Assembly (NCBI GenBank): GCA_029856105.1
Contig: JAHQWH010000019.1
Location: 1-58,236, forward strand
DNA length: 58,236 bases
From: Promethearchaeia archaeon
GTDB lineage: Archaea > Asgardarchaeota > Lokiarchaeia > Sigyniarchaeales > SOKP01
Reading direction: 5' to 3'
A model generated the notes under the pieces. The model was not told the DNA's origin. It did not search any database and saw only the letters and a list, made by a program, of their open reading frames with translations. Below are positions 49,006 through 57,769 of the stretch, one piece after another (position 1 is the first letter of the stretch; each line of letters opens with the position of its first letter). The position numbers were made by a program, and so were the translations under genes.

Positions 49006-50121
49006 CTATCTTTTCTTCTTTAAAAAATGTCTATAGACAATTAAATAATTTTTTACAGATATCATTCTAGGATTACGCCTAAAACCTGATGGTATAACAG
49101 CACTACAACGTGAGCAGAGGTTTGAAGTTCGCATCCAATCTTTAAATTCATCAGCATGTGCGGGATATCTGCAATTTGGACATACAACAATTCCTCTGCC
49201 TCTATCTCCGGGAAGTTTTGGTAAATTAAAACAAAAGATACATTTGAAATCATCTACTGTAAGATATGATGCTTTTGGTTTATATTTATTTAGATCACGA
49301 ACTTTTGAAGTTGGTTTAACACGAGTAGTACGTGAAGTATTTGTTGTTCTAGTCCTTGCCGTTTGTTTATGTGATGTAGGGGTTGTTCTTGACGATTGGG
49401 TTCTAGATCTTGTTGTATGTGTAGTTGTCCTAGTTGATGGAGATGTATTAGTTGTGCGTGTTGTGCGTACTCTTTGTCTCTGGGTTGAAGGTGTGGTCAA
49501 ATTATTGATCCTTCTAGTACGGTCAGCAATGTAATCCCGAGTTAACGTTGGTATTGATGAACCAGTACTAGTAAATCCAAAAACAATTAATATTAAAACT
49601 ATAGCTATGAAAAGTAATAGGAGATTTAAGTCTAGTAGAGTAAAATTATAAAAAGTTATCCAATAAGCAATAATAAAAATAAGAACTGAGAACGATAGAA
49701 TATATCCCAATGTCCTTGCTTTTACTGATTTTTTTCCAAAATAGATTATATTATATTTCTTAAAACAACGATATAAAGAATATAAACCATACATTACGAA
49801 TGGAAAAGCAAAAATTAGACTCCAAAAACTAAAATACACGCCACTGATAAGACTCTCTCCCAATAGACCAGTAAAAGAGCCCCATATGGAGTAAAAAATC
49901 CCGATAAATAATGGAAGAACCACAAAAAATGCAGTATTATGTGGTGAATTAAACTCGCGGTGGTGCTTGATATTTTCAAAAATCCTTAAAATAAATATTA
50001 TCCATAATCCGATTAATAACCATGTAAAAAAAAAAGCTAAAGAATATGAGATTAAACCATGAATTAAGCCAATTATTAGAAAAATAATAGCTATTATCCT
50101 TAACACTTTTTTTTTAACCAT
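49006..50121 (-). CDS. Six-TM membrane protein with Thr/Arg-rich linker and C-terminal RING-like zinc finger (candidate E3 ligase)
   Basis: About six hydrophobic segments; CIFC...VVCPNCRYPAHADEFKDW...CSRC; last gene of the Ubl-E1-E2-JAB operon. Confidence 0.75.
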   Translation of the reverse strand: MVKKKVLRIIAIIFLIIGLIHGLISYSLAFFFTWLLIGLWIIFILRIFENIKHHREFNSPHNTAFFVVLPLFIGIFYSIWGSFTGLLGESLISGVYFSFWSLIFAFPFVMYGLYSLYRCFKKYNIIYFGKKSVKARTLGYILSFSVLIFIIAYWITFYNFTLLDLNLLLLFIAIVLILIVFGFTSTGSSIPTLTRDYIADRTRRINNLTTPSTQRQRVRTTRTTNTSPSTRTTTHTTRSRTQSSRTTPTSHKQTARTRTTNTSRTTRVKPTSKVRDLNKYKPKASYLTVDDFKCIFCFNLPKLPGDRGRGIVVCPNCRYPAHADEFKDWMRTSNLCSRCSAVIPSGFRRNPRMISVKNYLIVYRHFLKKKR

Positions 50122-50150: not shown

Positions 50151-50969
50151 TTATTCTTCATCATATTCTAAATAAACTGGTTTTCCTTCAATAATAGGAT
50201 TCATAAAATCTAAAATTTCTGGTAACATTCTCACATCTAAATGCCCCTTAATATCAAAGGGAATTGAAAACCATTTTTTTGTTTTAAAATTAGCACGATA
50301 AATTTCAAAACCTAAAGATTTCCCGTTAATCTGATATGGATCAATAACAAGCGCAATAGCCTTATCCCATAATTTTTGATATCTTGCTTGAGTTCCTAAG
50401 TCTTCTCGTGACATAAAACATCCATAGGAAGGATGAGAATGATACCATCCACAAATAAACTGATTATTTTTTTTAATATCCTTGAATGCTCTAACGTAAT
50501 TTCTATAATCTTTAATTTCAGCATATACTGCTGTACCATGCCCCATCGGATACGCATCTTCAACATGGAGAATTCCTTTTTTATTATCGTATTTTCCTGC
50601 AAGCAACCCTATTACTTCAACCCAATTCTCTCTTCGGATTTTAGAATGTGCATATTTTAATGAATGGCTAGAGATCTTAAGGATAGATTTTACAGTCAAA
50701 GATATTTCAACTTTATCATTTCTAGCTACAGTTTTTATTGTGTCCATAGGAATTGGTTCAAGTTTGGCTTTAATTTCTTCTGAATGCTTTAAAGGCTTTG
50801 CGTTAATAAGCTCAGTTGTTAATTCTTCTTGCAATTCTTCTAGTTGTAATTCGGTATATACTTCTTCAAGCAATTCCTTTTTAATTTTTTCCTTAATTTT
50901 CTGTTTTATTGAATCTCTGAGCGCTTTATCATCACTATTCATAATACATTCACCATTTATCTTTTGCAT
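50151..50969 (-). CDS. JAB1/MPN+ (JAMM) metalloprotease with N-terminal coiled coil (likely start ATG 50942)
   Basis: EVIGLL...GWYHSHPSYGCFMSREDLGTQ, ALVIDP; GGTGA RBS before 50942. Confidence 0.92.
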   Translation of the reverse strand: MQKINGECIMNSDDKALRDSIKQKIKEKIKKELLEEVYTELQLEELQEELTTELINAKPLKHSEEIKAKLEPIPMDTIKTVARNDKVEISLTVKSILKISSHSLKYAHSKIRRENWVEVIGLLAGKYDNKKGILHVEDAYPMGHGTAVYAEIKDYRNYVRAFKDIKKNNQFICGWYHSHPSYGCFMSREDLGTQARYQKLWDKAIALVIDPYQINGKSLGFEIYRANFKTKKWFSIPFDIKGHLDVRMLPEILDFMNPIIEGKPVYLEYDEE

Positions 50970-51477
50970 ATTTCTTTACAAGACTTTTTACTTTTTTATC
51001 AAAAAGCTTCGGATTTTTCATCATTTCTATTGCAGCTTTCTTATTAAAAACATCAGTGGGATTAACATACTTACCATGGGTGTTTAACATGGCAATTATT
51101 GCTTGAACAACAGTATTTGCTGTTTTTGAAGGACTCCATCCTCCTTTTTTACCCGTTAAAGAAGGATCTACTAAAGCTAAACAAATATTTCTCTGCCCTT
51201 TGTATTCACTTGGTTTTGCCCAAAAATTTGGATGCCAAATTGGAGTATGCAATCTTACGAAAGGAGGGCGCTTAGGATACTGAGCAGGGAATTTCATTTC
51301 CAACTTAAACAATCCACCTGCATAAGCTGTACCTTTAGGACCTTTAATTGTGATTGCTAAATGATCAATACTCTTTTTTTTCGAATTAAATGGTTTTAAT
51401 TGGATAATAGTACCTTCTTTAAGCAATCTTTTTAACCCCGCAAAATCTCTAGAAACACGACTGGTTCTTATACTCAT
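50950..51477 (-). CDS. Ubiquitin-conjugating enzyme E2
   Basis: GPKGTAYAGG, FPAQYPKRPP, HPN, catalytic ICL, WSP, NKKAA. Confidence 0.95.
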   Translation of the reverse strand: MSIRTSRVSRDFAGLKRLLKEGTIIQLKPFNSKKKSIDHLAITIKGPKGTAYAGGLFKLEMKFPAQYPKRPPFVRLHTPIWHPNFWAKPSEYKGQRNICLALVDPSLTGKKGGWSPSKTANTVVQAIIAMLNTHGKYVNPTDVFNKKAAIEMMKNPKLFDKKVKSLVKKYAKDKW

Positions 51478-51558: not shown

Positions 51559-52791
51559 TTATTTTAATTTTAAGGTAACGTAAATATCTCCACCCTTAAA
51601 CCCCACAACGGTCAGAAATTCGTAATTTCTTAATCCATTTTCGATTACACTTTGCTCTAAATCTAAAACCATGATGTCATTGAAATCCTGTAAGGTAATA
51701 ACTGGTTCAAATTCAGGTTCCAATTCAAATCCATTTTTTTGCAATGTTCTAATTATGTTCATGCAGGGTGATTGAGGTTTCATTTTTATAGCAATACGTC
51801 TTACGTTTTTACCACATTGAGAACATTCCGGATTTCTCTTCTTTTCAATATGATACAGTTTCATTGTCATTCCATTAAATATAACATAACTTGAAATGGG
51901 CCGTCCTAAACTCTTATGACCTCTTTTCCAATGCAAAATTTTCACAGCTTCATGTGATTCTAAAGCAGAAATAATAGCATTAATAGTAATGATCCCAGGA
52001 TCATGACGATCAATGATTTTAACTATATCATCAGAAGTATATTCAGGTAGGAAATTATGCTTATTCACTAATTCATTTGCGACTTTTTGGATAAATTCAA
52101 TATCTTTTATATTTTTTGGGTTCAGATCTCTATCAAATTTTTCTTTAAACGCCATATCTCCTTTAAAAACACAATGAATCCGTTTTCGGGGGATACCTAC
52201 CACTGTACAGGCTGCCATTTCATCACTTTCTCCTACTGGTAGTGGATTACATTCATAGCAAGCATTCCGATACGGAAAGATTGAATACATATGTCCGTGA
52301 TAACCAGATGTACCTCCATCCACTAATGGTTTTCTAAATCTTATACATTGCGCATTTAGGTTCAAACGAGCATTCATTGAATCAAGACCTCCAATAACAA
52401 CATCAGCCGCATGATATAAAGCAGGATCTAACCTTTCTAAGGAGGTATGATAACCTTTTACAGTAACATTGGGATTAATCTTGATTAGCTTATTAGCTGC
52501 CACAATAGCTTTTGGTTCTCCTAACTTTGCATCAACAAAAAGAAGTTGGCGATTCAAATTGGAATGCTCAATAATATCTAAATCAACAAGATCTAAATGG
52601 CCGACCCCTAACATGGCCAGGTTTTTACTAATTTCGCAACCTAACCCACCAATGCCTACAATTAACACTCTTGAGTTTTTTACCAAATTCTGAGACCATC
52701 CTTCCAAACGAAATTGGCGGTCATATAAATCTCTCTCTTCCGCTGTCATTCTTTTGGCAAAAAAATCTGATTCCTTATCCATTATTATCAC
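51559..52791 (-). CDS. Ubiquitin-like activating enzyme E1 (Uba2/Uba3-like; probable start ATG 52782)
   Basis: YDRQ, GIGGLG, DLDIIEHSNLNRQ, CYEC, catalytic ACTVVGIPRKRIHC, CSQC, plus a C-terminal extension. Confidence 0.92.
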   Translation of the reverse strand: MIIMDKESDFFAKRMTAEERDLYDRQFRLEGWSQNLVKNSRVLIVGIGGLGCEISKNLAMLGVGHLDLVDLDIIEHSNLNRQLLFVDAKLGEPKAIVAANKLIKINPNVTVKGYHTSLERLDPALYHAADVVIGGLDSMNARLNLNAQCIRFRKPLVDGGTSGYHGHMYSIFPYRNACYECNPLPVGESDEMAACTVVGIPRKRIHCVFKGDMAFKEKFDRDLNPKNIKDIEFIQKVANELVNKHNFLPEYTSDDIVKIIDRHDPGIITINAIISALESHEAVKILHWKRGHKSLGRPISSYVIFNGMTMKLYHIEKKRNPECSQCGKNVRRIAIKMKPQSPCMNIIRTLQKNGFELEPEFEPVITLQDFNDIMVLDLEQSVIENGLRNYEFLTVVGFKGGDIYVTLKLK

Positions 52792-52866: not shown

Positions 52867-53199
52867 TTAAAAGTATCCCGCAGTACTTGCTGGGATCAAG
52901 AGAATGTCGTCGCCATCATTAACACCATAATCTTTTAATTGATTACCCTCATCCATAGTAACTCCTCCGGATGAGAGGTGAAATTCTTCAGGATCAAGTC
53001 CGTATAAATTTCCTAATGTTTGTTTGATGTCACTTACATTATTAGCGTCATTCACCGTTAATTTCTCCTTCTTTTCACCAGGACCAATAGTTGACATGAA
53101 GTATAGAGTCAACTTTCTGCCTGTTGAGGGTGTTTTACTTGATGGAGTCTTAGATTTAACTGGTTCTAATTCTTCATCAAAATCGTCTTCAAAACTCAT
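52867..53199 (-). CDS. Ubiquitin-like modifier 1 with acidic N-terminal tail, C-terminus ...PASTAG-YF
   Basis: Beta-grasp pattern (VSDIK...FHLSSGG.TMDE..QLKDYGVNDGDDILL); first gene of the E1-E2-JAB-RING operon. Confidence 0.88.
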   Translation of the reverse strand: MSFEDDFDEELEPVKSKTPSSKTPSTGRKLTLYFMSTIGPGEKKEKLTVNDANNVSDIKQTLGNLYGLDPEEFHLSSGGVTMDEGNQLKDYGVNDGDDILLIPASTAGYF

Positions 53200-53465
53200 T
53201 CAAATCACTTTATCTATTTTTTTAATTTTTTTTTTTAAGAATTTAATAATATGATGTAAAAATGATATTAAAAAACTAATTGGAATGATTTTGAAGTTTT
53301 ATTAATTTTAAAAAGTAAAAGAAATTATATATTAAATAGAGTTCCTAAGAAAATATATTTATAAATTGAATGACAATTTATTAATATTTATTGGTGAGAA
53401 TACTGTTTAGAAAGAAGATTTGATTAATAAATTCAGACTTTTTAACATAGTAAAAATTTAAGCTT

Positions 53466-54137
53466 ATGAGCTCTCCGGATAACCTTCAATCTATTGTGTG
53501 TGATTTAATAGGGGAATATTTGAAAAAGAAACCTTTCTTTTCAATAGAAGATATTGTTGTATTTATCAATAATAGATCAAAATCTAACCCTTATCTAAAT
53601 AAAAATAGTATTGAACTTATAATTAAAAATCTAATTAAAAAAAGAATTTTAATTCCTGGAACAAAATTAATGAAAAACAATATTATTGAACATCCTATAA
53701 GAAATGAAATTTATAATTTTATAAAGAAGAATCCATCAAATATTAATGAAATAATGAAAGCCATTAATATTGGAAGCAATCAAACATTATGGCATTTATC
53801 TTGCTTAGAAAAATTTAGATTTACTAGATCAAAAAAAATTGGTAATCAAAAAATAATCTTTGAATACGATTCAAATCCAGAATATGACATGTTATTTTTT
53901 TATTTAAAACGAAATATCGTTCAAGAAATAATTGATTTTATGATTAAAGAAAATAAAACATTAAAGGGTACTGAAATCTCAACTGGATTAAAAAAGAATT
54001 ATAATACGATAAAAAAGTATCTTGAAATATTAAAAAATCTGGATTTAGTAACAATCGAAAAAGAAAATAAAAAGGTTTCTTTTAAAATCAATACAGAGAA
54101 ATACTATAAAATAAGAGAATCACTTTTAGGTGAGTGA
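53466..54137 (+). CDS. Tandem winged-helix DNA-binding protein
   Basis: RNEIYNFIKKNP.NINEI...WHLSCLEKF, and a second HTH (TEIS..LKKNYNTIKKYL). Confidence 0.75.
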   Translation: MSSPDNLQSIVCDLIGEYLKKKPFFSIEDIVVFINNRSKSNPYLNKNSIELIIKNLIKKRILIPGTKLMKNNIIEHPIRNEIYNFIKKNPSNINEIMKAINIGSNQTLWHLSCLEKFRFTRSKKIGNQKIIFEYDSNPEYDMLFFYLKRNIVQEIIDFMIKENKTLKGTEISTGLKKNYNTIKKYLEILKNLDLVTIEKENKKVSFKINTEKYYKIRESLLGE

Positions 54138-54221
54138 GCATCAAAATTTCAAACTTATTCCAATGGGATTTATATTTTGAATTATACATTAGAAATTTGA
54201 ATAAAATTTATCATAAAAATC

Positions 54222-55010
54222 ATGAGGAAGAATTTTAGAGTCTTAAGTCTCATAACTCTTTACGTAGGGATAGCATTTGTCTATTTGATTCTTATCTTTT
54301 TACAAGTAGAAAATGTTCCAGTATATCTCTTTTTAACAATTGGCAGTGTTGCTGTGCTATCCACAAGCACTATCTACACAGTTGTTCAATCTAAAAGTAC
54401 CCCCATTGTGAAGATGAAAGATATTAAATCATTTCCCAAACAAAAACTGAGTAAGAAAAAAACTAGTGCTCTACTTGAGGATTACTTTGATGCAATGCCT
54501 TTAATAGATAAATATGCGAATGCGATGGAATCATTTGAAGAAATAGAATCGATGGATGATTATATTTTTACTATTTTTAGTAAAGAAGAAATAGCTAAAA
54601 TTGATCTCTTAGGATTATCAAAAATGGACAAAATATTTTTTATTAGGGAAATGTTGTATTTTAACGTTTACGAGAGAAAACAGTTAATTGAAGACATGTT
54701 AGAAAACAAGAGCCTAACTGAGGAACAAGTGATATACAACCCACCATTGCAAACTATTGGGATGGATGAGAAAGTACGTGTTTATATAAGGTCATTAATC
54801 GAACCAGGTGAGAAAACTAAGATTCTCATAATTGAAACATTTGAATTAGTAAGTGTCATTAAAGAAAAAGTTGGGATACTATTTGATTATAATCTAGAAG
54901 ATTTTCTATTATCATCTGGGGGGATTTTATTAGATGAAACTCTTCTAATAAAAGATTACGTTATTGACGATGATGACGAAATTGCGCTAATTCCATCAAG
55001 AAAAAAATAG
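54222..55010 (+). CDS. Two-TM membrane protein with C-terminal ubiquitin-like domain lacking the terminal Gly
   Basis: N-terminal TM hairpin. The last ~80 aa align with both Ubls (PGEK, F.LSSGG..DE, DY...D.D.I.LIP) but end in SRKK. Confidence 0.82.
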   Translation: MRKNFRVLSLITLYVGIAFVYLILIFLQVENVPVYLFLTIGSVAVLSTSTIYTVVQSKSTPIVKMKDIKSFPKQKLSKKKTSALLEDYFDAMPLIDKYANAMESFEEIESMDDYIFTIFSKEEIAKIDLLGLSKMDKIFFIREMLYFNVYERKQLIEDMLENKSLTEEQVIYNPPLQTIGMDEKVRVYIRSLIEPGEKTKILIIETFELVSVIKEKVGILFDYNLEDFLLSSGGILLDETLLIKDYVIDDDDEIALIPSRKK

Positions 55011-55062: not shown

Positions 55063-55461
55063 TCAACCAGCAACGCTAGCTGGAATTAATAATATATCAT
55101 CTCCATCAGACAAGTTATAATCACTTAACATCGAAATTTCATCCATAGTGACTCCCCCCGAAGATAAATGAAAGTCAGCAGGATCTAAAGCAAACAAATT
55201 TGCTACAGTATCTTTAATATCTCCTACTTTATTTCCAGTATATACCAGTAATTTTTGTTTTTTCTCACCAGGTCCTATGGTTGATAGAAAATACACAGAA
55301 ATCTTTTTTCCTTCATGTGAGATTTTTTCATCTGGAGTTTTAACTGTAAATTCTTCCGTGGGGGCCTTTTTAGAAGGCTCATCTAATTCTTCATCTAGAT
55401 CTTCGTCAAATTCCTCATCAAATTCCTCGTTAAAATCTTCCTCAAAATCCATTAGATACAC
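55063..55461 (-). CDS. Ubiquitin-like modifier 2 with very acidic N-terminal tail, mature C-terminus ...PASVAG
   Basis: Close paralog of 52867-53199 (STIGPGEKK, FHLSSGGVTMDE, DGDDILLIPAS). Confidence 0.88.
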   Translation of the reverse strand: MYLMDFEEDFNEEFDEEFDEDLDEELDEPSKKAPTEEFTVKTPDEKISHEGKKISVYFLSTIGPGEKKQKLLVYTGNKVGDIKDTVANLFALDPADFHLSSGGVTMDEISMLSDYNLSDGDDILLIPASVAG

Positions 55462-55625: not shown

Positions 55626-56708
55626 ATGAATGATAAACACATTCCTAAATACCAAATTCGAGAAAAAACACCTGAAGAGCAATTAGATGTTATTTCGGAT
55701 GCGAAATTACTCAAAAAAATTAAGGAAGAAACAGCTAAATTGAACAAAGAGAAAAATGAATGGGAACAGGTTATTAAAAAATTTGAAGGATACCACGAAA
55801 ATATTGAAGATTTAGAAAAGAAAAGAAAAGAAAAAGAAGTTCAAGTGAGAGATTTACAAAATAAACATGAAAAATTAAGAAATGAATTAGAAGCTATGAG
55901 AAACGAAATAAAGCAAAGTAGAGAGAATCTAGATCAAAAAAATGCTAACTTAGAACGATATCAAGAGAAACTGCAAGGATTAAAAGATGAGATAGAGAGT
56001 GAGAAAAAATATTTAGAAAAAGATAAAGAAAGAATAAAAGATAGAATTAAAGAAATTAAAACTAAAATACCTGGTATGGAACGGAGAGAAAATGCGTTAG
56101 AGAGAACTGTTGAAAAGTTGGAAAACGCATTAATGGATTTAAGAAATGAAATCAAGAATTTATCGAGAGAAAGAGATAATCTAACCAAAGAAATCAATAG
56201 TTTGAGAAGAGAAATAATAGATGAAAAAAATCGATTTGAAGATGAGAAAAGAAAATTAAAAGATGAAAAAGAAAAAGTTCGCTATAAAAAAAAAGAGTTA
56301 AACCTTCAATCTCGTGAAGTTGATAAAAAAAAAGAAGGATTAGGCAAGTATAAAGAGAATGCAGATCGCGACGTAAGAGAATTAGAAAGAAAGAAAAAAG
56401 GGCAAGAAGCAAGATTAAAGGAATTAGATAGAAAAGTTCCTAAAGCAGAAGATACTTATTATTCTTTAGAACATAAAGTTCGTAATTTAGAGAATAAACT
56501 TAAAAACTTAAAAAATGAGTCTAGACAATTGGAAAAAGAAAAATCGATGATACAGAATGAAAAACAAGCAATTAGAAGAGAGAGAGAAAAATTAGAAAGT
56601 GACAAAAAGAGATTTCTTAGAGAAAAGCGAGATTTTGAAAGAGAGTTAAGAAAAATTAAAGAGATTCCAAAATATAAAATCAAATCAAAAACCCCTTCAA
56701 AATATTAA
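55626..56708 (+). CDS. Long coiled-coil protein with matching terminal motifs
   Basis: Continuous E/K/R/L heptads; N-terminal IPKYQIREKTP and C-terminal IPKYKIKSKTP. Confidence 0.8.
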   Translation: MNDKHIPKYQIREKTPEEQLDVISDAKLLKKIKEETAKLNKEKNEWEQVIKKFEGYHENIEDLEKKRKEKEVQVRDLQNKHEKLRNELEAMRNEIKQSRENLDQKNANLERYQEKLQGLKDEIESEKKYLEKDKERIKDRIKEIKTKIPGMERRENALERTVEKLENALMDLRNEIKNLSRERDNLTKEINSLRREIIDEKNRFEDEKRKLKDEKEKVRYKKKELNLQSREVDKKKEGLGKYKENADRDVRELERKKKGQEARLKELDRKVPKAEDTYYSLEHKVRNLENKLKNLKNESRQLEKEKSMIQNEKQAIRREREKLESDKKRFLREKRDFERELRKIKEIPKYKIKSKTPSKY

Positions 56709-56728
56709 ATATTAAGTTTGGGATATCT

Positions 56729-57769
56729 ATGAAAATTCCAAAAGGAATTGAGGGAGATTACCTTGAAACAAAACAAGACCATCTATTTTTTGATATAAAA
56801 GGTATTTATCACCCCCATAATCGTAAGATTTGTTTTTTAAGATTTTATCCCGATCAAAATGGAGATAGAATAAAGGATGACATTAAATTTAAAAAAATCT
56901 ATTCGCTCGAAGAGAGGTACTCAAAATTAAGAGAGCAGTATCCTCAATATCTATTCTTTTCTAAAAATTTTGATTTAGAACTTCAAGGAGTAAAATATGA
57001 AGATATAAAACAAATTTACACTCCTAGAGCCTATTTTAAAAAGCTTAAAGATAAACATGAACTAACAGAAACAGAAATTCAGTCTAAAAATCTATGTGAA
57101 CTTTTAATACATAAGGGTGATATTCCGGAAAATTCTATTGGGATATCGGGGTCTCCTATGATTGGATTAAACAAAAAAGGCTCAGATATTGATATAGTTA
57201 TATATGGTACTCAAGTTAGTTTAGAATTTCAGAATAAATTAAAAAATTTACATCAAACTTCAAACAATAGTAGAATGTATAATTTAGAGGAATTTAAAAC
57301 TCATTATGAATGGAGAGTTGGAGGGTCTGATATTTGCTTCGAGGATTTTCTAAAAAGCGAAAAAAGAAAGTTACATCAAGGAAAATTCCATGGAATCGAG
57401 TTTTTTATAAGGTATATTAAAAGTCCCGAAGATTGGAATGGAACTTATTACGATTATAACTTCAAGAATTTAGGGAGAATAAAAATTAAAGCAAAAATTA
57501 CTAATTCAACCAATTCTATTTTTACTCCTTGCTCTTATAAAATAGAGAGTTTAAAAGTTTTAGAGAGTAAAATTATTTCAGAGAATATTAATTTAAAGAA
57601 TCTTAATGAAATTAATTCGTTTAGAGGAAGATTTTGCGAGCAAGCAATCAAAGGTGATAGAGTGTTAGTTGAAGGCAAATTAGAAGAAGTGAATTTCAGG
57701 AACGATAAAAGTTACCTGAGAATTTTATTAACTGATCAAGTTCAAGATAAAATGATAATTATTGACTAG
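56729..57769 (+). CDS. Archaeal predicted nucleotidyltransferase (Pol-beta fold, COG1665-like)
   Basis: KGIYHP..R...LRF.P...G, GISGS...SDIDIVIYG, SFRGRFCEQA..G..V.VEGKLE. Confidence 0.78.
   Translation: MKIPKGIEGDYLETKQDHLFFDIKGIYHPHNRKICFLRFYPDQNGDRIKDDIKFKKIYSLEERYSKLREQYPQYLFFSKNFDLELQGVKYEDIKQIYTPRAYFKKLKDKHELTETEIQSKNLCELLIHKGDIPENSIGISGSPMIGLNKKGSDIDIVIYGTQVSLEFQNKLKNLHQTSNNSRMYNLEEFKTHYEWRVGGSDICFEDFLKSEKRKLHQGKFHGIEFFIRYIKSPEDWNGTYYDYNFKNLGRIKIKAKITNSTNSIFTPCSYKIESLKVLESKIISENINLKNLNEINSFRGRFCEQAIKGDRVLVEGKLEEVNFRNDKSYLRILLTDQVQDKMIIID

Follow-up and report, generated by a model that had tools for sequence, protein, structure and literature searches.

Within the window, the 58,236-nt stretch of DNA analyzed here (contig C18 of a 3.66-Mb Lokiarchaeial [Promethearchaeota] metagenome-assembled genome that is 92% complete and has a G+C content of ~30%), a 262-aa membrane-anchored ubiquitin-like (Ubl) protein, hereafter TM-Ubl (TM, transmembrane), is encoded among the genes of a Ubl conjugation system. 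TM-Ubl belongs to a known kind of protein, i.e., membrane proteins with a Ubl domain that is predicted to be non-conjugatable, built here on a receptor-tail module that is paired with a triple winged-helix (wHTH) protein. A literature search with most subscription journals outside its reach returned no description of a membrane-anchored Ubl in Asgard operons or of tail/wHTH pairs. The partnership of TM-Ubl with the wHTH protein is highly probable. We see an even chance that TM-Ubl acts as membrane tether or sensor within a regulatory tail/wHTH pair serving the Ubl cluster, with a dead-end Ubl domain as its input. This estimate covers the whole statement, within which confidence is much greater for the architecture and the wHTH linkage than for the feedback mechanism; a specific feedback role of the Ubl domain, taken by itself, is put forward tentatively.

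Asgard Ubl systems draw interest as precursors of the eukaryotic system. The TM-Ubl locus offers a small set of expressible parts, comprising the tail domain, the wHTH protein, a 19-nt promoter element and the E1/E2/JAMM/RING proteins. If the proposed role is true, Lokiarchaeia have surface-receptor tails wired to partners of the DNA-binding type, one of which has been re-used to monitor the Ubl system, and non-conjugatable regulatory proteins with ubiquitin domains arose in archaea by local duplication of a modifier.

The tail domain, its winged-helix partner and a shared cis element

The middle part of TM-Ubl is helical in the AlphaFold2 (AF2) model and strongly acidic (21 D/E vs 9 K/R; isoelectric point [pI], 4.2), in agreement with the preliminary description of the protein, which had been made from the letters of the DNA. 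A profile search against 1.84 billion representative proteins recovered positions 73 to 164 as an independent domain, present in 54 representative proteins besides TM-Ubl, some of which carry two copies (E values of 1e-8 to 1e-40). This ~90-aa domain follows a TM segment and a basic linker, is acidic family-wide (median pI, 4.7) and shows the motif ...DY.F....EEL.KIDLL.LS..EKK.FI.E.L.L...ERK.LI.EML, which is present in TM-Ubl. It lies no more than 10 aa from the C-terminus in 53 of the 54 carriers, whose lengths reach 2081 aa. A TM segment precedes it in all 31 carriers of at least 300 aa, many of which also have an N-terminal signal-like segment, and the ectodomains include FG-GAP and other propellers, beta-helix/NosD, LamG, WD40/PQQ and Ig-like domains. 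The carriers are surface proteins of type I that share a cytoplasmic tail, and one of them bears a Lokiarchaeota name. The nearest paralog of the TM-Ubl tail belongs to a 624-aa propeller protein (L029), the alignment extending over the second TM helix, the linker and the tail. TM-Ubl departs from the family in having a Ubl domain after the tail and no ectodomain; it is a derived member of the tail/wHTH cassette family, a grouping defined in the present analysis. Since the tail is a mobile module with a constant wHTH companion, the acidic middle region is not a spacer.

The tail has no match in Pfam, where three paralogs gave sub-cut-off FliG_N hints (E = 0.0007-0.007), nor among PDB sequences searched with the tail profile (best E, 0.45). 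Structural comparisons with Foldseek against the PDB (best E, 1.8) and with VIA-align against 48,161 chains (best Z, 4.8, among unrelated helical proteins) yielded no match either, and the ESM Atlas gave no usable one. Since the model is only moderate (mean pLDDT [predicted local distance difference test] of 65, with a core at ~80), a new fold cannot be claimed.

Three further tail proteins, all single metagenomic sequences and possible chimeras, have unusual companions. In P0176 and P0216 the tail is joined, at the C-terminus and the N-terminus, respectively, to a RING-like cross-brace zinc finger (C-x2-H ... CPxC ... CxxC ... CWxC), and in P0166 to a DnaJ J-domain. A small open reading frame (ORF) of the source genome that follows a histidine-kinase gene (C19:60775-60996, +) matches the second half of the tail weakly (E = 0.0014) and is probably not a true member.

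The wHTH protein encoded upstream of TM-Ubl exceeds the Pfam cut-offs, and its profile matches structures of ArsR-family, HlyU, CzrA, Sso10a and Lrs14 proteins. It scores 38.7 bits against the SdpR subfamily NF033789 (cut-off, 100), with an ArsR/SmtB subfamily match that is also under its cut-off. These matches point to a partner of the DNA-binding type that resembles ArsR/SmtB/SdpR regulators. Its basic charge, a family trait (pI, 9.3-10.1), complements that of the tail. Wherever both genes are assembled, an orthologous wHTH gene precedes TM-Ubl by 80-100 nt (84 nt here), even in a relative (L033) whose TM-Ubl is only 33% identical. The pairing extends to the rest of the family. The tail profile and wHTH searches covered the same 91 genomes, and at least 60 of the ~90 tail matches listed outside TM-Ubl lie within ~150 nt of a wHTH paralog encoded on the same strand, just upstream or downstream (counted by hand; 118 wHTH matches lie outside those listed).

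Eleven tail/wHTH cassettes were confirmed on DNA, and four of these are single ORFs. All four come from one genome (G273), which has 18 tail-domain and 20 wHTH matches in total, and they join in one frame a signal peptide, a beta-helix or other ectodomain, one TM segment, the tail and the full triple-wHTH; three (1039, 1000 and 1553 aa) are complete and one is seen only in part. These fusions are candidate one-component membrane-tethered regulators, and they fit the definition of transmembrane transcription regulators (TTRs; PMC10269533) as proteins with a TM segment and a DNA-binding domain. TM-Ubl differs from TTRs in that it lacks a DNA-binding domain itself and represents a split form, with a Ubl domain where the fused forms have the wHTH.

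Distances among tails closely mirror those among their wHTH partners, so tail/wHTH pairs duplicate and diverge as units. The Mantel correlation over 18 cassettes is r = 0.905, and it is 0.909 when only the 11 paralogous cassettes are compared; none of 5000 permutations reached these values. Such co-divergence fits a specific pairing and does not prove contact. The cassette of the 624-aa propeller protein has the tail closest to that of TM-Ubl and the wHTH fourth-closest to the TM-Ubl partner. At two loci, a second, shorter wHTH-related ORF sits between the full wHTH and receptor genes (L039:1659-2090, +, 144 aa; L041:5757-6338, -, 194 aa).

The sequence TTCAAAnTnATTCCAATnG occurs both in the intergenic region between Ubl1 and the wHTH gene and in the short spacer before TM-Ubl. 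The core of this 19-nt element is the palindrome ATTCCA-A-TGGAAT in most relatives, each copy faces its downstream gene, i.e., the Ubl1 operon or TM-Ubl, and the element is kept in 15-16 loci, the distant genus g7 among them. A scan of the whole genome with up to one mismatch returned three copies. The only two that are intergenic are both at this locus, and the third (C132:442-460) is inside a coding region and was taken as chance. No copy precedes Ubl2, and none precedes the Ubl gene of a genome (G019) that has neither the wHTH gene nor TM-Ubl, which is a single case. Together with the TATA-like box, the element in the spacer indicates that TM-Ubl has its own promoter. TM-Ubl and the Ubl1 operon are probably co-regulated by a dimeric DNA-binding protein.

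The ubiquitin-like domain and the membrane hairpin

The C-terminal domain of TM-Ubl (residues 184-258) is 37-40% identical to Ubl1 and Ubl2, with 34 invariant columns, and finds the soluble Ubls of its own genome in tblastn searches (E = 4e-13 and 7e-14), in line with the alignment noted in the preliminary description. That description had named the absence of a beta-grasp fold as grounds for giving up its interpretation; the AF2 model of the domain is a beta-grasp (pLDDT of ~80), and Foldseek matches it to ubiquitin, ISG15, NEDD8 and the Caldiarchaeum ubiquitin 6fno_D with E values of ~1e-6. Target-normalised TM-scores of the ten best matches range from 0.62 to 0.89 (6fno_D, 0.76), with a root mean square deviation mostly of 1.3-2.0 A. 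Against Pfam PF00240, TM-Ubl scores 14.9 bits, under the cut-off of 25.4, whereas Ubl1 passes at 28.1 bits. Membrane and soluble groups have ~22 conserved positions in common, including the PGEK loop, SSGG, DY and the (D/E)I.LIP strand, and are distinguished by ~19 others.

The basic TM-Ubl terminus, LIPSRKK, stops one residue before the position of the terminal Gly in the soluble Ubls. Aligned to ubiquitin, which served for residue numbering only, it falls at the Gly75 position, where the soluble paralogs read AS(T/V)AG. TM-Ubl thus lacks the C-terminal Gly of conjugatable modifiers such as ubiquitin, SUMO, SAMP and the Asgard Ubls ending in AG. The difference is consistent across 16 genomes, in which all 16 membrane copies end in IPS(R/K)... 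without Gly and all 28 soluble copies in IPAS(T/V/I)AG plus 0-7 residues. Similarly, only 1 of 120 database homologs of TM-Ubl has a Gly among its last eight residues. E1 chemistry needs the carboxylate of a terminal Gly, and its consistent absence therefore predicts that TM-Ubl cannot be conjugated. The Gly-less end, from which the preliminary description had already drawn this consequence, is borne out as a family feature.

A related observation concerns the AG-ending Asgard Ubl family. P0135 (372 aa) consists of three Ubl units joined head to tail, all of which have an acidic extension at the N-terminus and end in IP(H/F)STAG. It is a poly-Ubl precursor comparable to eukaryotic polyubiquitin genes.

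Two N-terminal TM helices had also been described for TM-Ubl, and they are recovered at residues 3-26 and 32-47 of the AF2 model, the second reaching up to residue 54 (grand average of hydropathy, 1.8 and 1.6). The N-terminus is basic (MRKNFR) and a Lys-rich segment follows the second helix, so both ends of the protein are predicted to be cytoplasmic by the positive-inside rule. In the family alignment, invariant residues occur in all three parts of the protein, the middle one being the most conserved.

A proposed membrane tether for a regulator and its alternatives

We propose that the acidic tail provides the basic wHTH regulator with a docking site at the membrane, by analogy with SdpI/SdpR or anti-sigma factors, and that the regulator would act on the shared element to control both the Ubl operon and TM-Ubl. 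In the sister cassettes the ectodomain would provide a variable input, which a permanent, non-transferable copy of the Ubl would replace in TM-Ubl. Binding of this domain by E1, E2, JAMM, the membrane RING protein or Ubl receptors (Cdc48/proteasome), or else its modification or turnover, would change retention of the regulator, and the state of the Ubl system would thereby be fed back to its own expression. The arrangement may have originated by duplication of a receptor cassette, followed by loss of the ectodomain, with the signal segment and the TM segment forming the hairpin, and finally by C-terminal gain of a copy of the neighboring Ubl, at the site that the wHTH occupies in the fused forms.

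Eukaryotes have membrane-tethered regulators, i.e., Nrf1 (NFE2L1) and Spt23/Mga2, that are released via ubiquitin, Cdc48 and the proteasome and thus feed proteolytic capacity back to expression. A prokaryotic counterpart of this control, in which the RING/JAMM/Cdc48-proteasome machinery treats the tethered Ubl like a conjugate and the fate of the tether sets the amount of free regulator, would be a homeostatic sensor built from kinase-free receptor-tail/wHTH signaling pairs; we regard this specific version as unlikely. The parallel is a functional analogy only, as Nrf1 and Spt23/Mga2 are eukaryotic endoplasmic reticulum proteins with other folds. Comparable in organization are SdpI/SdpR of Bacillus subtilis (PMC2910880) and the anti-sigma/extracytoplasmic function sigma pairs, in which a membrane protein beside an ArsR-type autorepressor holds the regulator at the membrane and the pairs have multiplied as units. 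However, SdpI is a polytopic immunity protein without a tail or Ubl domain and TM-Ubl has no SdpI match; the likeness is functional only, sequestration being predicted for TM-Ubl.

Several points weigh against the proposed tethering role. Both the docking of the tail on the wHTH protein and the binding of the latter to the element are deduced from sequence features, and a shared duplication history alone can give the observed co-divergence. The wHTH protein could be a local transcription factor that makes no contact with the tail, though the fusions argue otherwise. Moreover, the source genome has no other clear tail-domain protein, and its ortholog of the 624-aa propeller protein has a different C-terminus. 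The tail of TM-Ubl consequently does not need sister receptors and must have another partner, for which the wHTH protein is the simplest candidate.

The preliminary description had read TM-Ubl as a membrane adaptor, by analogy with proteins of endoplasmic-reticulum-associated degradation (ERAD), or as a decoy. What stands of this is a domain predicted to be non-conjugatable and linked to the operon; recruitment in the manner of an ERAD adaptor found no direct support, the domain order being reversed and the Ubl being a local paralog. The pairing of tail and wHTH and the promoter element common to TM-Ubl and the Ubl1 operon instead favor a regulatory tether or sensor. A Herp/Usa1- or Ubx2-like adaptor, whose Ubl would bring Cdc48, the proteasome or JAMM to the RING protein of the membrane so that membrane proteins are extracted and degraded, is accordingly a quite improbable alternative. 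Its layout is close, as HERP (HERPUD1)/Usa1 and Ubx2/UBXD8 also combine a membrane hairpin with a cytosolic non-conjugatable beta-grasp and associate with polytopic RING ligases (for the roles of Usa1 and Ubx2, see PMC13328587), and TM-Ubl is likewise linked to the gene of a polytopic RING-like protein. In Herp/Usa1, which binds Hrd1, the Ubl is however N-terminal to a C-terminal hairpin, the opposite of the order in the AF2 model of TM-Ubl. Ubx2 has a UBA domain and a UBX domain with an FPR loop, whereas the corresponding loop of TM-Ubl reads SSGG as in modifiers and no UBX family was matched in Pfam at E <= 1. The Pfam search revealed no homology between TM-Ubl and these adaptors beyond the fold. 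None of them is paired with a DNA-binding protein, the adaptor alternative does not account for the tail/wHTH linkage, and the conserved gene block has no retrotranslocon or Cdc48 gene. A decoy or competitive inhibitor is just as doubtful. The dead-end Ubl would then bind to E1, JAMM or Ubl receptors and weaken conjugation or deconjugation close to the membrane, without any part in gene regulation. The positions in common with soluble Ubls suggest that binding surfaces may persist, and lack of the terminal Gly would preclude activation, but the positions that differ between the groups point to a specialized surface. Furthermore, a decoy needs neither a membrane anchor, a receptor-tail module nor a co-inherited wHTH gene.

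A cofactor resembling MUB/UBL3, which would hold the soluble basic E2 (or E2~Ubl) non-covalently near the polytopic RING protein and promote modification of membrane or surface proteins, is unlikely, if less so than an adaptor or a decoy. Non-covalent contact with the backside of E2 is a hallmark of MUB/UBL3. MUB/UBL3 has a ubiquitin-fold domain that stays permanently on the cytoplasmic face of the membrane, is not conjugated through Gly and works with a membrane RING-type ligase system, tethering E2s and being required for the ubiquitinating activity of the membrane E3 MARCH1 (PMC9001657). TM-Ubl is similarly membrane-anchored, Gly-less and a paralog of the cognate modifier; the products of the operon include a soluble E2 (pI, 10.4) and a RING-like protein of the membrane, the Ubl domain of TM-Ubl is acidic (pI, 4.3), and a RING-like zinc finger occurs in two tail-domain proteins. 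Were this alternative true, it would set an archaeal precedent for tethering E2 activity at the membrane. MUB is anchored by C-terminal CaaX prenylation, whereas TM-Ubl has an N-terminal TM hairpin, an SRKK end with neither a CaaX box nor a Cys near the C-terminus, and no MUB-type Pfam match; its Ubl domain is a recent paralog of the local modifiers and not a MUB homolog. MUB also has no tail domain or wHTH partner, and a MUB-like role does not account for the tail and its strict pairing. Additionally, the genome lacking TM-Ubl (G019) keeps the membrane RING protein and E2, which indicates that the ligase does not need TM-Ubl. Binding of E2 would be compatible with the regulatory tether if it were the sensed input, and the adaptor and decoy activities could also be ways in which the Ubl input works.

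A further possibility concerns the partner, since the wHTH proteins might be structural winged-helix scaffolds that link the tails of surface proteins and TM-Ubl to a cytoplasmic machine, rather than halves of signaling pairs. The tandem winged-helix proteins of Asgard ESCRT-II are such non-DNA-binding scaffolds (PMC9192718), and the fused forms hold the wHTH at the membrane. Nevertheless, the best wHTH matches are DNA-binding regulators of the ArsR/SmtB/SdpR/HlyU/Lrs14 type and not Vps22 or Vps25, the proteins are basic across the family, and a conserved palindromic element is present in both promoters. A scaffold role is thus held to be improbable.

Organization and conservation of the locus

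As the preliminary description had stated, TM-Ubl lies between the two soluble Ubl genes (Table 1), which flank the wHTH gene as well. The wHTH gene and TM-Ubl are divergent from the Ubl1-E1-E2-JAMM-RING operon.

Table 1. Coordinates of the TM-Ubl locus on the window (contig C18) and of the fused ORFs of genome G273 on their own loci
Feature	Position	Strand	Basis or remark
TM-Ubl gene (262 aa)	54222..55010	+	ORF; membrane hairpin, tail domain and Gly-less Ubl
Two TM helices, residues 3-26 and 32-54, with a 5-residue outer loop	54228..54383	+	AF2 model, hydropathy, flanking charges, alignment conservation
Lys-rich juxtamembrane linker, residues 55-82 (9 K/R; pI 10.5)	54384..54467	+	Low pLDDT, predicted disordered
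Acidic helical tail domain, residues 83-170	54468..54731	+	Profile search, AF2 model
Beta-grasp Ubl domain, residues 184-258, paralog of Ubl1/Ubl2	54771..54995	+	Alignment, tblastn, AF2, Foldseek
C-terminal SRKK and stop, no Gly	54996..55010	+	Alignment to soluble Ubls
Promoter-proximal element TTCAAACTTATTCCAATGG	54148..54166	+	Kept upstream of TM-Ubl in 16 loci
TATA-like box, directly after the element before TM-Ubl	54168-54178		Sequence
Second element copy, facing the Ubl1-E1-E2-JAMM-RING operon	53277..53295	-	Sequence comparison
Triple winged-helix (wHTH) protein, 223 aa, pI 9.6	53466..54137	+	Pfam HrcA_DNA-bdg and HTH_5
Ubl1, soluble modifier precursor, ends in ASTAG-YF	52867..53199	-	Pfam, alignment
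Ubl2, soluble modifier, ends in ASVAG; convergent with TM-Ubl	55063..55461	-	Alignment
E1	51559-52791	-	Pfam ThiF
E2	50950-51477	-	Pfam UQ_con
JAMM	50151-50969	-	Pfam JAB
Polytopic membrane RING-like protein	49006-50121	-	Operon member; synteny conserved
Fused ORFs of G273	L035:191-3307, L036:1698-4697, L037:1281-5939, L034:3750-5999	- (all)	

Database searches returned 430 clusters of TM-Ubl homologs at E <= 0.001. The 120 listed are 60-98% identical, and all named ones are from Promethearchaeota or Lokiarchaeota. Among 301 Asgard genomes, full-length TM-Ubl was found in ~46 (a hand count from the match table), all in four genera of one Lokiarchaeial family, i.e., in 23 of 28 genomes of its own genus, 20 of 22 of a second genus, and 2 of 5 and 1 of 2 of two further genera. 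In the first two genera, absence of the gene goes along with contig breaks or low completeness, and outside the genera of this family matches cover the Ubl domain only. Co-occurrence with the operon in related genomes, which the preliminary description had set as a check, holds down to 33% TM-Ubl identity, with the block RING-JAMM-E2-E1-Ubl1 / wHTH-TM-Ubl / Ubl2 kept in L004, L005 and L033 (61%, 67% and 33% TM-Ubl identity, respectively). In another genome (G210), the wHTH-TM-Ubl pair is found beside Ubl1 and a RING protein only. In G019, a genome whose genus has no TM-Ubl, RING-JAMM-E2-E1 and one Ubl gene immediately adjoin a coiled-coil gene (L031, G019:C7:5000-23000), and the wHTH, TM-Ubl and Ubl2 genes are all missing. 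As operon and coiled-coil gene are thus contiguous in their absence, the wHTH, TM-Ubl and Ubl2 genes entered the locus as an insert.

Two other features of the neighborhood were observed. In GCA_030599585, TM-Ubl and Ubl2 are separated by an inserted gene for a class-I lysyl-tRNA synthetase (L005:8812-10470, -). Downstream of Ubl2 in the window (55626-57769, +) are genes for a coiled-coil protein (360 aa) and a nucleotidyltransferase-like protein (346 aa), which may belong to the Ubl system; both keep their synteny with the Ubl cluster in L004, L005 and L033, and in G019 the coiled-coil gene does so too.

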